Under the pieces are notes generated by a model. That model saw only the letters and a program-made list of their open reading frames with translations. It was not told where the DNA came from and made no database searches. A DNA stretch of 32,000 bases from Wolbachia endosymbiont strain TRS of Brugia malayi (GTDB lineage Bacteria; Pseudomonadota; Alphaproteobacteria; Rickettsiales; Anaplasmataceae). Where the stretch lies: the NCBI RefSeq assembly GCF_000008385.1, contig NC_006833.1, forward strand, positions 450,001-482,000, read 5' to 3'. Positions 1,395-32,000 of this stretch are shown here, piece by piece. The position numbers and the translations under genes are program-made. Position 1 is the first letter of the stretch. Each line of letters starts with the position of its first letter.

Positions 1395-1565
1395 TTAAAA
1401 TTTCTAATTAATGGATAAAGGTAGCACATTTAAAGAGCTTAGCAAAGAACACTTTTATTATTACAAAAATGGCCCCCATTTTAAAATACTCTACATATTA
1501 CAAAAAGAAGTTTACATTAGATCTCTTGCATAACAAGCTAGCAGCGATATATAAACCTCAGGAAC

Positions 1566-1844
1566 GAAAAAATTACTTGACAAGCCCCGTCAGTCTCTTT
1601 ATCATGTACAGTAAGGTTGTTTTATATAACTTCCTAACCTGGGTAGGTTAAAACGGCAAGAAAGTTTTGTATTTGATGTACTGTTATTTAAATTTTTACA
1701 CTTGTACACCTTATGTCTTTATAAAACTAGGTTTTTACCTATAAAGCGTTTAAGGCTAAAAAACACCAAATATAGAAAATAGATAGTAATTAGGGCTTTT
1801 TTACCTTTTTCCCTATTTTAGTAAGTTTTTTAAATATTTGTAGC
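1566..1844 (+). repeat. copy A of a ~300-bp non-coding intergenic repeat family (short variant)
   Basis: Shares ordered blocks with copies at 13529-13843(-), 25680-25990(-) and 31576-31878(+): AAAAAnCTACTTGAYAA, CTGTrcAGrTTAAAcGrcAAg, TTTTrCACTwTGTrCACC..TCTTTATAAA, AGGTTTTTACCTATA, GTTTAAGrC and CTTTTrCCTTTTTyyCT...AATATTTGT. Contains TTGACA (1577-1582), a 17-nt spacer, then TATCAT (1600-1605). Lacks the internal segment after CCTATA that the other copies carry. Confidence 0.7.
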
Positions 1845-2109
1845 TAAGGATTTATATCAAACCTAAAATATAAGTTTTTAGTTATGAAAAGCAAAGTTTT
1901 TATAAGATTGACCTCACAGAAAGAAAAAGAGGAGGGAAAGTTAGGCTATTTTGAAATAAAATGAAACGCCTGTTTGCAAGGGTTGAGATAGAGGGAACAC
2001 ACAACAAAGTTTAAAGTGGAAGTATAAAAAATTACACATCAACATTTTCTACTCTTTTTCACGAATTTCATGTTAAATAACATGATTGCATATACCTTAT
2101 AGAAGGTAT

Positions 2110-13299: not shown

Positions 13300-13525
13300 C
13301 GTAAATGTCTAAACACATGCACCGATATCGTTCCAGCACATGGCGCTGGTGTACTTATCACAAGTATGTATAATAGATTTTTATGGAATAATACAAAAAA
13401 CTCGATTCTAGTGTCAAGCACATAGCTGTACGAATATTGTAATTTTAGTCCACCAAGGTGGTGTCATTCTAGTGCCCCTTCTTGTCATTTAAGCAGTTGA
13501 CACTGGGATCTCACTTTTACACATT
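13300..13525. repeat. cluster of degenerate palindromic-element copies
   Basis: gttccagcacatggcgctggtgtac, gattctagtgtcaagcac, caccaaggtggtg and gtgtcattctagtgcc...cttgtcatttaagcagttgacactgggatctcac. These carry the same arms (gtcat, ccagtg, ttgacactgggat) as the ileS and alaS elements. Confidence 0.6.
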
Positions 13526-13528
13526 GGA

Positions 13529-13843
13529 CCACAAATATTAAGAAATTTATCAAGTAAAGAAAAAAGGTAAAAGGACTCCATATAGAAGTTGCTCACTCTC
13601 TAATCCTGTAAATTGCCGTACTATGCTGTCTTAAACGTTTTATAGGTGCGTTTCGATTTGTATAGGTAAAAACCTGAAATCTAGGTAAGATTTATAAAGG
13701 CATGAGGTGTACATAGTGCAAAAGTTAAAAAATAAGAAGCCAGCCCCGTTATACTCTTGTCGTTTAATCTGTACAGGTTGAGGATAAATAAACACCTTCA
13801 ATCTCATGATAAAGGATTGGTAAGGTTTATCAAGTAGTTTTTT
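13529..13843 (-). repeat. copy B of the ~300-bp intergenic repeat family
   Basis: All conserved blocks are present on the minus strand. TTGATA (13833-13828), a 16-nt spacer, then TATCAT (13811-13806). The palindromic box tgtacatagtgca is at 13708-13720. An 11-bp direct repeat tttatcaagta occurs at 13546-13556 and 13826-13836. The promoter end points towards miaB. Confidence 0.7.
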
Positions 13844-13877: not shown

Positions 13878-14516
13878 CTAGACTTTATACCTTTTGCACT
13901 CAAACTCACATAAATCATGAATTATGCATGTTTTACACGAGGGTTTTTGTGCTTTGCAAACATATCTACCATGTAAAACTAGCCAATGATGAGCATAGAG
14001 TAGGTATTTTTTTGGAACTACATTTAAAAGAGATTTCTCTGTTTTGAACACGTCTTTTTCTTTCACAAGGCCAATTTTATTGCTCACTCTAAAAACATGA
14101 GTATCAACTGCCAATGTTGGAATGCCAAGTCCCGAATTTAAAAATACATTAGCACTCTTTCTTCCAACTCCTGGCAAAGACACCAAGTCGTCAAAATTGG
14201 TAGGCACTTTACTAGTGTGCCGCTCAACTAATATTCTGCTGAGCTCAATTATGTTTTTTGCTTTGGAATTATATAAACCAATACTGCTTATGTGTTTCTT
14301 AAGCTCGCTCTGCCCAAGATTCAGCATCTTTTCTGGCGTATTAGCGATGCTAAATAGCTCTTTTGTAATTTTATTAACACTTACATCAGTTGTACGTGCA
14401 GATAGAACTATCGCAACCAGTAATGTAAAATGATTGGTATAACTTAGCTCTATTTTCGGTATAGGATTCGATTGCTTTAATTTCTCAAATATCAATTCTA
14501 TTTTTTCTGAATCCAT
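13878..14516 (-). CDS. nth: endonuclease III (DNA-(apurinic or apyrimidinic site) lyase)
   Basis: 212 aa with the HhH-GPD motif LPGVGRKSANV and the C-terminal 4Fe-4S ligand pattern CKAQKPSCKTCIIHDLC. Confidence 0.9.
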   Translation of the reverse strand: MDSEKIELIFEKLKQSNPIPKIELSYTNHFTLLVAIVLSARTTDVSVNKITKELFSIANTPEKMLNLGQSELKKHISSIGLYNSKAKNIIELSRILVERHTSKVPTNFDDLVSLPGVGRKSANVFLNSGLGIPTLAVDTHVFRVSNKIGLVKEKDVFKTEKSLLNVVPKKYLLYAHHWLVLHGRYVCKAQKPSCKTCIIHDLCEFECKRYKV

Positions 14517-17480: not shown

Positions 17481-17971
17481 ATGGATACTAAAATAAGTTA
17501 TGCAAGAACTATAAGACGTATCCTTACATTTGCCATTGATTACATCTTAGCACAGGGAATAGGATTTGTCATTGGATTTACTATTCGATTACCTTAGCGC
17601 CTTCTCTATTACTCAATGTGACTGAATGATTTTAGATAAAGCAGTAATTATACAAGTAATAGGGGTAATATTGGAATTAACATTTTATGTATTTACGATA
17701 ATAGAATTTGGTGGTACTCCAGAACAATTATTACTTTGCATGCGTGTAAAAGACGAGAATACACTTGAAAAATACTCTAACACAAGCAATAAACAGAACA
17801 GCAACTTTTGGAGTGTCGTATTTTATAATCTATCACACACTACTCAATATTTCTAATCTATTCATAGTTGTACCAATCTTAATTATATTATTTGCAATCT
17901 TTAGCCAGCGTAAGCAATTTCTTTACGGTAAAATTGCAAAAACAGTAGTAATAGATTATAAACTTAGTTGA
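17481..17971 (+). pseudogene. RDD-family membrane protein, disrupted
   Basis: ATG at 17481 gives MDTKISYARTIRRILTFAIDYILAQGIGFVIGFTIRLP*. The sequence resumes in other frames as FGGTPEQLLLCMRVKDEN and then AINRTATFGVSYF...FSQRKQFLYGKIAKTVVID. RDD-domain hallmarks (R..A.iD, GxTPGq, rq.lhDkiAkT.V) are split over three frames. Confidence 0.6.
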
Positions 17972-23929: not shown

Positions 23930-25452
23930 TATTACACTACGTCTGTCTATCCAATGCAATTGGTCAAGCTCTGACTTAACACTAGGGGAAAACCTCTTTA
24001 AGCTGTTTGTGATACACTAGCCAACTCCCGTTGTACTGCTTCCTGATTTTTTATCTTTTCCTTTTGCTTTTTAACCTTCTCCAAATCTTGCTCTCTCTTT
24101 TTTATTATCCACTCAAACTCTCCCTTGTTTATATATCCCCTTTATTATAACTGTAAGTGAGCCTTTCAATACTTTGACTTAATCTCCTCTCTTCCTACTC
24201 AAGATTATGTTTTGTGATATAGCCATCAATGAGTATCTCAATATCTCTATTCAATCTACCTTTCTGTTTTTCAAACGCTTTATCCAGTGGCTTTTTATGC
24301 TCTGGAATTCTATGTTAGTACTCCTTTATAATTCTATTTGGCTCTTTTAATAAGTTTTCCACTTCTTCCCAGATAGGAGTTTCCAATATTTCTGCACGAA
24401 TTGGCTTACCACTACATCTTCTGATTTCACTATAACAATAATAAAGGTTAGGAGCACTACAACAATAGTAGCTTCTTTTAATATCGCCACTTTTTACACT
24501 GCGATAGGTACATCTACAACGCCAACATATAACCAATCCTTGAAGTAAAGACGTTCCTTTACCCTTCCGTACTCTTGCTCTTTCCCTATTTCAGCTAGTT
24601 GTTCTTGTACTGCATCAAATAATTTTTCTCCAATTATATTTGGTATTGTTATATTAATCCAACTTTCTCGGTCATTATGATAGACGGAATAGCTTTTTTT
24701 GCGCATTTCCTACTCCACTTCTTTTTTTATTGGACCTAACTTTGTTTTACCAAACGCTGCTTGCCCTTTGTATGTGAGATCCCTCAAGATTCTATTAATT
24801 GCACTTTGATGCCAATCTCTTTTGCCCTTTGGTATAATAATACACATCTTTTTCAGTCGTTGTACAGCTTCTCTTAAAGTCGCTCTTTCTTGATCTACTC
24901 ACGCAAACAGTTTGCGCACTATTTCGGCTTCCTCTTAATTAACTTCAAACCTTGCCTCTCCCCTCACTATATACTTTATATAACGGTAACCATAAGGAAT
25001 ATTACTCATTACACGACCTTCTCTTGCTGCATAGATTTTCTCCTCGGCGATTTCGTTCTTTCATCTTCTGCTGCTATTCCCTACACATCTAGTAAAGTAA
25101 TTCAGACCCTGGACTATCGTCTATCTGACAGTTCAAAAGAATTACCTTTGCTCCTGCTTTTTGGAACTCTTTAGATAAGAATTTCAGACCTGTACATTTA
25201 CGTAAAAAATGGCTAGGCAGATGAACGTAAATTTCACAATTTTACTTCTACTACTTTGCCACGTAAACTGTGTAAACCAGGATGCTTTAAATTTGATTCA
25301 CTATAACCATTATCGATGAATTTATATTCATCTAGCAGCTCATATCTACCCCTATCAATTCTACTTTCCAAGTTAGCAAATTAGCTACCTATTATATCCT
25401 CTTGTACTTGCCTTTTCAATGAAGCTCTCACATATAAATTTACTACTTTCAT
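23930..25452 (-). pseudogene. large serine recombinase (prophage WO-type), heavily degraded
   Basis: Minus strand from the ATG at 25452 gives MKVVNLYVRASLKRQVQEDIIGS*FANLESRI..YKFIDNGYSESNLKHPGLHSLRGKV, a resolvase N-domain in which the catalytic S is lost. Later pieces are IAAEDER.., PYGYRYIK, EEEAEIVRKLFAW and PKGKRDWHQSAINRILRDLTYKGQAAFGK. ORFs 24494-24706 and 24315-24536 carry the recombinase domain and a zinc-ribbon-like CWRC...YYCC. There are many stops and frameshifts. The 3' boundary is uncertain. Confidence 0.7.
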
Positions 25453-25679
25453 TTTACCGTACTTCGTAAAGTTTGCTATTATTAATGGTTTATCTCCATT
25501 TTACAAATATATTAACCTTTTATGTCTAATGAGTTAAGCTTACTGTATGCCAATCTCAAGCATACATCTGTACGAACATCTGTTTGCGAGAGCAGTGTGC
25601 TAAATATTACAAACAGATTTTACCTAAAACACAAGGTGTCTTTGAAGTAGCAAACATTGAAATCTGAGATACTACTTTA

Positions 25680-25990
25680 GTAATAAATATTTTAGAAATT
25701 TACCAGATAAAAAAAGGCAAAAGAAGCTTCTCTGATGGCTAGTTATTTATATTAACTTTGTAAATTGGTGTTTTTTGTTGTCTTAAACACTTTAACAAGT
25801 GTATTTTACACTTATACTAAGTAAAAACCTTGAAAGTTTATAAAGACACGAGGTGCACATAGTACAAAAAATAAAATACAAGACGCCAAGCATGTTAAGT
25901 TTTTTACCGTTTAGCCTACACAGACTGAAGACAAATAACAACCCCAGTACTATAGTAAAGGGGTCAGCAGACTTATCAAGTAGTTTTTTT
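25680..25990 (-). repeat. copy C of the ~300-bp intergenic repeat family
   Basis: The conserved blocks are present on the minus strand. TTGATA (25979-25974), a 16-nt spacer, then TACTAT (25957-25952). The palindromic box tgcacatagtaca is at 25853-25865. The promoter end points towards the recombinase pseudogene. Confidence 0.65.
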
Positions 25991-26051
25991 TTCATTGGGC
26001 TGGGATGCTACTAAAAGTTTGTTATGTAGGAGAACTTTTTACAGGGTGTAT

Positions 26052-27155: not shown

Positions 27156-28109
27156 TCAATTCACTTCTATTTCATGCAACTTTTTTATTTTACCAACAGA
27201 AAGACCTATTATTTCAGCTATAGCACCTATAGACATACCTGCCTTAAGTGAATTTTTCGCTACTGCTATTTTAGCTTTCTTCACACCTTCCTCCCTACCC
27301 TTCTCTGCTCCAACTTTGATGCCTCTCTCTTTGCTGATTTTGACACCTTCTTCTCTACCTTTTTCAGTAGCAAGATCAAGTCTGTATTCAAGGATGGCTT
27401 TTTCTTTCTGTAGATTCATTACTCTTTCTTCATACGCTATTATATCTTCTTCATTCCAATGAAACTCATCTAACCCATCGTATGCTAGCTTTATTATTAG
27501 TACTTTTTTGGCAACCCTTTTTAGATCTGTTTCAGTGGTATCCTCTGCATTCTTAAAAAAGAAGCACCAATGCTCTACTATATTTATTAATTGCTCTACT
27601 TTACTCTTAGAAAATTTAGGTAGTTCAATAAAGATAAATTGAAAATCTTTCAAGTAATGGCCATTGGTTTTTGTATCATGTATATTATGAGTAGATATAT
27701 AATCAACCTTTTCAGAGAGTAAGTTACAATTGGAAATTGCAATAAAGAAAACTTTCTTTAAATCAACAATGTAATTACCAGATTTATCTAATTGCCTTGA
27801 GTAAGCCTTAACAGCATAAGGTTGAACACGTTTTTCAAAGCCTTTGTTTATAGCGAGCTGCACTTCAATTACACGCCTAGTTCCAGTGGCATCCTTGCAG
27901 AAAACATCAACTATTATGCTTTGTTTGTTAGAGGCAATTTCAGGATCGATTATAGCGCTTAAGAATTCTACCTCTTGTATAGCATTTATTTCAGCGAATC
28001 CTAAAATATTATTGAGAAAGCAAATAATAATCTTCTTATTCTTTTCAGTGCCAAAGATTTTCTTAAATATTAGGTCAAATTTCAGATCAAGAAATTTTGA
28101 TAAAGCCAT
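27156..28109 (-). CDS. Rpn-family recombination-promoting nuclease / putative PD-(D/E)XK transposase
   Basis: 317 aa with the N-terminal motif DLIFKKIFG and a PD-(D/E)XK-like core IIVDVFCKD...RRVIEVQLA. The C-terminus has an EKGREEGVK x2 repeat followed by AKNSLKAGMSIGAIAEIIGLSVGKIKKL, which is typical of Rpn/transposase_31 proteins. Confidence 0.75.
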   Translation of the reverse strand: MALSKFLDLKFDLIFKKIFGTEKNKKIIICFLNNILGFAEINAIQEVEFLSAIIDPEIASNKQSIIVDVFCKDATGTRRVIEVQLAINKGFEKRVQPYAVKAYSRQLDKSGNYIVDLKKVFFIAISNCNLLSEKVDYISTHNIHDTKTNGHYLKDFQFIFIELPKFSKSKVEQLINIVEHWCFFFKNAEDTTETDLKRVAKKVLIIKLAYDGLDEFHWNEEDIIAYEERVMNLQKEKAILEYRLDLATEKGREEGVKISKERGIKVGAEKGREEGVKKAKIAVAKNSLKAGMSIGAIAEIIGLSVGKIKKLHEIEVN

Positions 28110-31480: not shown

Positions 31481-31575
31481 ATGAACTCCTAAAAACTTCT
31501 TATTTTATTTTAAGACTTAAGTGTATAGCGTCAATATTAAATAACTTTAAAGTTTTAATGAATAGCTAGAAATGC

Positions 31576-31878
31576 AAAAAGCTACTTGACAAATCTTGCC
31601 AACCACTATAGCACTGAAGTATTCAGTCATCTTTAATCTGTGCAGATTAAATAACAAAGTATCACGTAGTTAGCATCTTATGTTTAATTTTTTGCACTAT
31701 GTGCACCCTTACTTCTTTACAATATTTCTTAGGTTTTTACCTATATAAGCTGGAACGCGCTTATAAAGCATTTAAGACAGTATAGTACGCCAATTTGCAA
31801 GATTAGAGAGTAAACACTATCTGCTCGAGATATCTTTTGCCTTTTTTTCTATTTAATAAATCTCTTAATGTTTGTAGC
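31576..31878 (+). repeat. copy D of the ~300-bp intergenic repeat family
   Basis: All blocks are present on the plus strand. TTGACA is at 31586-31591, but only a weak -10 follows (tatagc after 15 nt). A perfect palindromic box tgcactatgtgca lies at 31693-31705. An internal hairpin tataagc/gcttata is also present. Confidence 0.7.
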
Positions 31879-31880
31879 TA

Positions 31881-31980
31881 CTGTCATCCCGCTACTTGTT
31901 AGCAGGACCTAGAGATGCCACAAATGAATTGCGAGATAACGTAGGGCTGCGATACCCCAGCGCGTGATGCTGGTTTCTCA
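31881..31980. repeat. palindromic-element copies directly abutting repeat copy D
   Basis: ctgtcatcccgctacttgttagcaggacc and ccccagcgcgtgatgctggtttc. The arms match those of the elements at 11001-11080 and 13300-13525. Confidence 0.55.
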
Positions 31981-32000
31981 TACTGAAAAACCATAGGATG

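Follow-up and report, generated by a model that had tools for sequence, protein, structure and literature searches.

Copies of a dispersed repeat in the wBm window

The stretch of DNA considered here, called the window throughout, is 32,000 nucleotides long (NC_006833.1, positions 450,001 to 482,000) and belongs to wBm, the Wolbachia endosymbiont strain TRS of Brugia malayi. Among its genes, which include nth, miaB, icd and hemB, lie four homologous non-coding copies (A to D) of a dispersed repeat, each about 320 bp long and aligned by MAFFT; this analysis concerns their identity and present state. Copy B lies between nth (13878-14516, minus strand) and miaB, and copy C comes 15 nt after the stop codon of hemB.

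All four copies were recovered by nhmmer (E = 5e-39 to 2e-51) with a profile hidden Markov model (HMM) whose only source was 14 intact copies from one other Wolbachia genome. A two-block pattern, CTTTAYAA-N4-20-AGGTTTTTACYTA, matches exactly the same four copies and had no match in 100 shuffles. Alignment, pattern and profile agree on the number of copies and on the strands given for them by a first-pass annotation made from the letters of the window. Its coordinates were nearly right, except that copies A and C begin about 45 nt further upstream, with a 5' inverted repeat and a leader; the T-rich block that it took for the end of the repeat is followed by about 35 nt of further homology among the copies, up to TAGTAAATTTCTTAAATATTTRT. 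Similarity, put by eye at 70-80%, lies at the low end of that range, core identity among the four copies being 68-74%. The features of the four copies, each read here as a probable relic, and of a fifth trace of the family are the following:

1518..1849, plus strand: copy A, probable relic (nhmmer E = 4.8e-39, and alignment); profile positions 1-356, lacking the second module and the 3' inverted repeat
1518..1534, plus strand: 5' terminal inverted repeat of copy A, TAGATCTCTTGCATAAC, matching the family terminus TAGACYTCTTGCATAAC at 16/17 positions
[quoted passage not shown]
1697-1708, plus strand: palindromic box of copy A, altered (sequence)
13528..13843, minus strand: copy B, probable relic between nth and miaB (nhmmer E = 5.3e-43); profile positions 39-351
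13806..13833, minus strand: promoter-like site of copy B, TTGATA-16-TATCAT (promoter scan 10/12; alignment to the wMel RACE clones)
13708..13720, minus strand: palindromic box of copy B, TGCACTATGTACA, whose dyad contains a single mismatch
17497..17513, minus strand: solo relic resembling the 5' inverted repeat, TATAGTTCTTGCATAAC, followed by leader-like sequence, upstream of icd; the fifth family trace, absent from the list of the first-pass annotation
25675..26037, minus strand: copy C, probable relic (nhmmer E = 2.5e-40, match 26032-25675); profile positions 6-356
26037-26021, minus strand: degenerate 5' inverted repeat of copy C (12/17 matches)
25952..25979, minus strand: promoter-like site of copy C, TTGATA-16-TACTAT (sequence)
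25866-25854, minus strand: palindromic box of copy C, imperfect (sequence)
31574..31880, plus strand: copy D, probable relic (nhmmer E = 2.3e-51, and alignment); profile positions 37-353
31693..31705, plus strand: palindromic box of copy D, TGCACTATGTGCA, the only perfect one in the window (sequence)

The promoter-like hexamers described earlier for copies A, B and C are present at a spacing of 16-17 nt (matches of 11/12 in A and 10/12 in B), and in copy D a deletion has shortened the spacer to 12-13 nt. The palindromic box had been reported from all copies; it is perfect in D only, imperfect in B and C, and altered in A. No reading frame is conserved across the copies, as had been noticed before, and a scan for tRNA and tmRNA genes gave no matches. 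All four copies end at profile position ~351-356, before the second module and the 3' repeat that intact members of the family possess.

Intact members of the family in other Wolbachia genomes

The repeat is conserved in related genomes. The two-block pattern was run over bacteria at one genome per species and matched 115 stretches; some 80 of these come from Wolbachia or Wolbachia-like metagenome-assembled genomes, and the rest are isolated chance matches in unrelated phyla. Profile searches brought the family to more than 100 copies in Wolbachia of beetles, a cicada, a louse, a fly and filarial nematodes, with 123 profile matches in the retrieved loci plus the window. At least 47 copies that cover at least 250 profile positions were found in the retrieved parts of the 1.39-Mb genome of the Cantharis cryptica Wolbachia, and one supergroup A genome, retrieved for another purpose, also has a family copy.

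Intact members are 469-495 bp long and are bounded by perfect 16-nt terminal inverted repeats (TAGACYTCTTGCATAA). In alignments of the flanks the ends are sharp, the element starting with TAGACYTCTTGCATAAC and finishing with the reverse complement, GTTATGCAAGARGTCTA; at one locus (L081) the arms TAGACCTCTTGCATAA and TTATGCAAGAGGTCTA, 16 nt each and 100% complementary, stand 443 nt apart. We listed 19 elements with paired ends, mostly of 469-495 bp. The order of an intact element is a 5' inverted repeat, a leader of about 20 nt, an A-run, the promoter-like site TTGACA-17-TATCAT, a core of about 270 bp, tandem modules and a 3' inverted repeat. The core is non-coding and contains short hairpins, among them the palindromic box and a AGGTTTTTACCT hairpin. 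The modules, of about 135-145 bp, number one to three per intact element and each ends in GCCTTTTTTT; where there are two in tandem they lie 133-148 nt apart, each with the end GGGTTTCTTTTGCCTTTTTTT. Some subfamilies have the second module swapped for other sequence, which in a cicada-strain copy includes nested small palindromic repeats, the 3' inverted repeat still terminating the copy.

The family is almost always intergenic, with only 2 of 85 copies overlapping an open reading frame (ORF) of at least 150 aa. No coding capacity was found: the consensus is closed in each of its six frames, and the open stretches of single copies reach at most 35-74 codons, in no common frame. We rejected a 40-codon consensus frame, opened by an ATG inside the -10 box, which does not exist in copies C and D.

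A miniature element sharing its ends with an IS5-family insertion sequence

The Cantharis cryptica Wolbachia also harbors a 905-bp insertion sequence (IS) of the IS5 family, in two identical copies (L098 1228-2132 and L022 791-1695), whose ends are TAGACTTCTTTCAAAATT and its complement. Its transposase is frameshifted into ORFs of 145 aa and 93 aa, carries the HTH_Tnp_4 and DDE_Tnp_4 domains and matches the NCBIfam model of the IS5 family; a BLAST comparison of this IS with phage records gave no match. The repeat has 14/16 terminal nucleotides in common with the IS, and the interiors show no similarity. [quoted passage not shown] The family has these features of a MITE: it is below 600 bp and non-coding, it has terminal inverted repeats, its copies are dispersed in intergenic regions, and its ends are those of a co-resident IS. 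A non-autonomous mobile element, one of the explanations offered for the window copies, is thus borne out by intact relatives that are non-coding, intergenic, present in dozens per genome and bounded by perfect inverted repeats common to an IS5-family element. Nor are the copies fragments of an IS or of a group II intron, since an IS is matched by the terminal 16 nt alone and Rfam gave no hit.

Bacterial MITEs whose ends are those of an IS, here one of the Wolbachia IS5 family (ISWpi1 group; PMC3004938, PMC3205602), are likewise small, non-coding, multi-copy and intergenic, with an unrelated interior. ISWpi1, a Wolbachia element of the IS5 family, is reported to target T(T/A)A (PMC3004938), which resembles the TA-centred flanks of the repeat family; the co-resident IS, at 905 bp, differs in length from ISWpi1 (916 bp). 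A 2024 census gave Wolbachia the highest MITE density of any prokaryote (PMC11602168).

The family differs from most MITEs, which lack such features, by its strong internal promoter and its tandem modules. The Correia elements of Neisseria, which are TA-flanked MITEs of about 100-155 bp, bring promoters and transcribed hairpins into intergenic regions and can alter the expression of neighbouring genes; their promoters lie at or across the ends. The family is like them in its way of working, but has no known sequence relationship to them, and its elements are longer (about 480 bp) with an internal promoter.

Two candidates for an autonomous partner or an own gene were rejected. A 2.45-kb pair of inverted ends (L013) encloses an unrelated ORF of 486 aa on the opposite strand. 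In the window, fragments of a phage-type large serine recombinase (Zn_ribbon_recom) occupy 24315-24847 on the minus strand, about 300 bp downstream of copy C; this relic does not recur beside other copies and was discarded as the element's own gene.

Promoter and transcription of intact members

The -35 and -10 hexamers of the family are 70-99% conserved among 49 non-redundant copies, whereas spacer and discriminator are 40-80% conserved. Published data allow this promoter to be placed on mapped transcripts. Woolfit et al. (2015) chose intergenic regions of wMel by their high, intergenic-specific RNA-seq signal and carried out 5'-RACE, with tobacco acid pyrophosphatase (TAP) treatment, on 13 of them (PMC4349823). 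Two of their clones, IGR-1047 and IGR-1021 (PMC4349823, S1 Table C), align to the family and both begin at the same homologous G of GAAGC/GAAGG, 7 nt past the -10 hexamer; the promoter is therefore real in intact members, and the start about 7 nt past the -10 that had been predicted from the window matches these family members. By homology, the transcript of copy B would be predicted to start at 13799.

The RACE product of IGR-1047 is longer than 330 nt and continues beyond the T-rich block into module 2, in agreement with the absence of any predicted intrinsic terminator at that block. IGR-1021 is co-transcribed with the downstream coding sequence in wMel (PMC4349823). Moreover, for at least 7 wMel regions the RACE primers correspond, with 0-3 mismatches, to copies of the family in other genomes; Woolfit et al. 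did not regard those intergenic regions as a single family (PMC4349823). We also considered as a family member ncrwmel02, a validated Wolbachia small RNA from the same study as the family RACE clones (PMC4349823), which is likewise intergenic and about 290 nt long; it was rejected because the sequence of its amplicon has no relation to the family, and it occurs in a single copy.

Decay of the copies in wBm

Both terminal repeats were sought in the window copies, and only the 5' repeat was found, in A (16/17) and C (12/17), the 3' repeat being present in none, which fits truncated relics. Each wBm copy is 76-85% identical to a copy in another genome, as against 68-74% to its siblings in wBm, so that the four derive from different subfamilies.

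Orthologues of copies C and D are present in wBp, the Wolbachia of B. pahangi (99.3% identical overall), and in wWb, that of W. bancrofti (96.3%). Between wBm and wWb the two copies differ at 33/663 positions (5.0%), a rate close to that of the other non-coding DNA of the same stretch (57/1270, 4.5%; Fisher p = 0.65) and above that of nuoG, nuoH and hemB taken together (89/4054, 2.2%; p = 1.6e-4); no purifying selection on the orthologous copies C and D is seen in these rates. The -35 box itself carries substitutions, two in copy C of wWb and others in copy D of wBp.

In Wolbachia of Litomosoides the orthologues of B and C are disrupted. Only the first ~55 and the last ~60 nt of copy B are left in wLsig (from L. 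sigmodontis), split by about 1.3 kb, and almost nothing is left in wLbra (from L. brasiliensis); copy C of wLsig stops near the -35 box. Both wBm and wLsig have a copy at the B site and at the C site. These are therefore old insertions, made before these supergroup D strains separated, and they have been unprotected since. The wLsig segment of about 1.3 kb between nth and miaB (L121 3737-5060) is of unrelated sequence; a similar segment, with 77-83% identity, is found in wLbra.

We are confident that the four window copies and the solo end are neutral relics of a promoter-bearing Wolbachia MITE that has been catalogued but not named. In the mechanism we propose, an intact element is a non-coding unit with an inward-facing sigma-70 promoter that fires, as shown for wMel by the published 5'-RACE; its transcript has no terminator and could run out of the element into a neighbouring gene. 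All 52 IS copies of wBm are non-functional (PMC3205602). There is no functional transposase in wBm. Its copies no longer have the 3' module or the 3' repeat and change at a neutral rate, and such transcription as might remain at copies A and B would be incidental.

Several points weigh against this interpretation. The movement in trans is read from shared termini only. No target-site duplication could be made out: element ends are always bracketed by TA, or by A-N-T, and the 3-bp A-N-T matches (12 of 38 pairs, as against 6.9, with a maximum of 14, after shuffling of partners) are statistically not separable from a target preference. A joined-flank search among the retrieved loci found no empty orthologous site, and synteny at nth differs in supergroup A and B genomes. 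The neutral-rate comparison is based on two copies and 33 substitutions. Finally, old copies from many genomes show 80-99% conservation of promoter and core, and their terminal repeat and leader can hardly be recognised; a core that outlasts the terminal repeats is the reverse of what purely selfish selection on a transposase-dependent element should preserve, and it hints that the core may have a function at the level of the element.

Small RNA genes or promoters of neighbouring genes as unlikely readings in wBm

As a rival explanation, the wBm copies could still be a multi-copy small RNA family, with their own promoters and an RNA of about 250-300 nt kept by selection. The family promoter is real, with the 5' ends of two wMel copies at the predicted position, so that an own promoter and a mapped 5' end, from published TAP-treated 5'-RACE clones, are in place for wMel members of the family; the at least 7 wMel regions with family-matching primers had been chosen for intergenic-specific RNA-seq signal. 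Local hairpins are preserved, with 94% pairing in the 5' stem; against its shuffles an intact copy has the better fold (z = -2.8), and the dyad of the palindromic box is kept through four different sequences (TGCAC-TAT-GTGCA, TGCAT-TAT-ATGCA, CAGTAC-ATAG-GTACTG and CAGTAT-ATAG-ATACTG). The box is the clearest structural signal of the family, and its compensatory variants suggest that active lineages maintain a hairpin, or else a binding site with symmetry.

On the structure of minimum free energy derived from one intact copy, doubly changed cells number 62, as against 37.6 ± 5.4 in shuffles, a control that is lenient for related sequences, and pairs with double changes are not significant, the observed value being reached in 51/500 shuffles. 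The RNAalifold consensus of 30 diverse copies amounts to only -3.3 kcal/mol and 10 pairs, and for copies B and D the fold does not improve on that of their shuffles (z = +0.7 and -1.05). An Rfam search of the whole window at the gathering threshold, and of copy B at an E-value threshold, returned nothing relevant. The wMel transcript, which passes the T-rich block into module 2, has no defined 3' end, and the spacer of the promoter of copy D is crippled. The divergence of copies C and D, promoter boxes included, is that of the non-coding background, and wLsig and wLbra have disrupted orthologues of B and C. A selected small RNA family in wBm is therefore highly improbable. The same divergence and disruption of orthologues speak against an operator-like site with a present function in wBm, which had been put forward for the palindromic box.

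Alternatively, the wBm copies may have been exapted as portable promoters or 5' leaders, B for miaB and A for a GDSL relic and alaS. The wMel copy in IGR-1021 is in fact co-transcribed with the downstream coding sequence, and copies A and B, which keep promoter matches of 11/12 and 10/12, have a same-strand gene downstream. The first-pass annotation had three copies pointing towards such a gene or pseudogene; this is literally so for A and B, but family-wide the orientation is at chance level, the downstream gene being co-oriented in 28 and opposed in 27 of 55 copies. Downstream of C the nearest ORF of at least 150 aa is 2 kb off and on the opposite strand, with only the recombinase pseudogene relic between, and the ORFs called downstream of D in the wBp orthologue, which is 99.3% identical, lie on the other strand. 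Moreover miaB has a promoter-like site of its own, closer to its start codon:

13388-13417, minus strand: candidate miaB promoter, TTGACA-18-TATTAT (11/12), about 95-125 nt upstream of the miaB start codon

From its sequence and position this site would be a likelier miaB promoter than copy B, whose orthologue is disrupted in wLsig and wLbra while miaB is intact, and the copies show no excess conservation. We regard exaptation in wBm as very unlikely: a built-in promoter holds for the family, where the wMel 5' ends fall 7 nt past the -10, and is not supported as a promoter or leader of miaB or another neighbour in wBm. For wBm this removes a tempting false lead, the repeats being neutral fossils rather than small RNA genes or regulators of miaB, alaS or the neighbours of hemB.

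Correspondence with wMel repeat class 11

The promoter-bearing MITE can be related to an older record. "Repeat class 11" of Wu et al. (2004, PMC368164, Table S1) is the most abundant repeat of wMel, with 89 segments. Segments of it lie inside the wMel intergenic regions IG-151, IG-292, IG-921 and IG-1047, at 171,054-171,493, 462,039-462,445, 1,080,494-1,080,929 and 1,216,516-1,217,060.

The RACE primers or clones of IG-151, IG-292 and IG-1047 are family sequence (0-3 mismatches); the primers of IG-921, which contains the variable number tandem repeat VNTR-105, have no family match, and IG-921 is linked by coordinates only. On these coordinates and on primer and clone sequences, rather than on the wMel genome sequence, the family corresponds to class 11. 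The largest class-11 segments, of 493-510 bp, have the size of an intact family element, unlike the wBm members, which are truncated relics.

Class-11 segments inside the same wMel intergenic regions mean that the family has been on record, unnamed, since 2004. Class 11 is probably one of four families described at that time as unknown, inverted-repeat-flanked and multi-copy; the record consists of coordinates and gives neither termini nor a partner IS, a promoter or a name. In a survey of IS elements in Wolbachia the leftover repeats were set aside for want of IS hallmarks, and our literature search for the terminal and core sequences found no paper containing them.

A possible landing site of phage WO

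A relation to phage WO also emerged. The record of the prophage WOVitA1 (HQ906662.1 nt 1-142) carries family positions ~73-215 at its end beside the serine recombinase: directly after the large serine recombinase gene comes family sequence, from about the -10 box onwards, and the published attP primer lies just upstream of it. For the attB of this phage type the published wording is a "noncoding, repetitive sequence", and VNTR-105 is its later name (PMC5062602, PMC9203015); the wMel intergenic region of VNTR-105 holds class-11 repeats. In the window, copy C lies about 300 bp upstream of the serine recombinase relic.

One could therefore see the copies as relics of attachment sites used by the large serine recombinase of phage WO. 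The use of the repeat by a phage would, however, not explain what the repeat is. Copy C is uninterrupted at the point where the WOVitA1 junction falls, the recombinase relic has the orientation opposite to the WOVitA1 arrangement, no phage remnants are found near copies A, B and D, and wBm has no prophage (PMC1069646). VNTR-105, the attB of sr2-type phage WO (PMC3287509, PMC9203015, PMC5062602), shares with the family the class-11 repeats of its wMel region and the WOVitA1 end that abuts family sequence; it is, though, a single locus of 105-bp periods and 23-bp hairpins, and the window copies have neither such an array nor a prophage junction. As an account of the window copies this origin has a negligible chance of being right. 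The repeat family may nonetheless supply the landing site of sr2-type phage WO, which is a lead and not an explanation of the copies.

Implications for Wolbachia genomes

The identification of one promoter-bearing MITE ties together class 11, several highly transcribed and RACE-mapped intergenic regions and, probably, the attB of sr2-type phage WO, and this helps annotation and the reading of intergenic signal in RNA-seq and transcription start site data of Wolbachia. The family profile is moreover a ready marker of ancient insertions common to supergroup D strains.

A broader reading, which we hold to be possible but rather doubtful, is that in strains with intact copies the family combines a mobile transcription unit with a core hairpin function and a landing site of sr2-type phage WO. 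If this were true, dozens of strong promoters and read-through transcripts would be scattered over a genome with almost no transcription factors, and many of the "highly expressed intergenic regions" of wMel would be accounted for. Selection at the level of the element, for a hairpin function in RNA or DNA, would preserve the core, and the wBm copies would be the fossils not of a simple MITE but of a hub for regulation and the mobilome.

Neighbouring repeats and genes

Short palindromic repeats of the type GGATCCCAGTG...CACTGGGATGACA / CATCCCGCTACGTGTTAGCGGGATG adjoin copies B and D (13440-13520 and 31890-31990), and the same type is nested in an otherwise complete copy of the cicada Wolbachia (L117 1900-2020). 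They are a second, smaller repeat family that inserts into the first.

An ORF with a PDDEXK_2 domain (27156-28109, minus strand) shows a wBm-wWb divergence of 4.55% with 9 indel columns. Its rate is like that of non-coding DNA (4.5%) and unlike that of the neighbouring genes (1.9-3.1%), so that relaxed constraint or decay of this ORF is possible.

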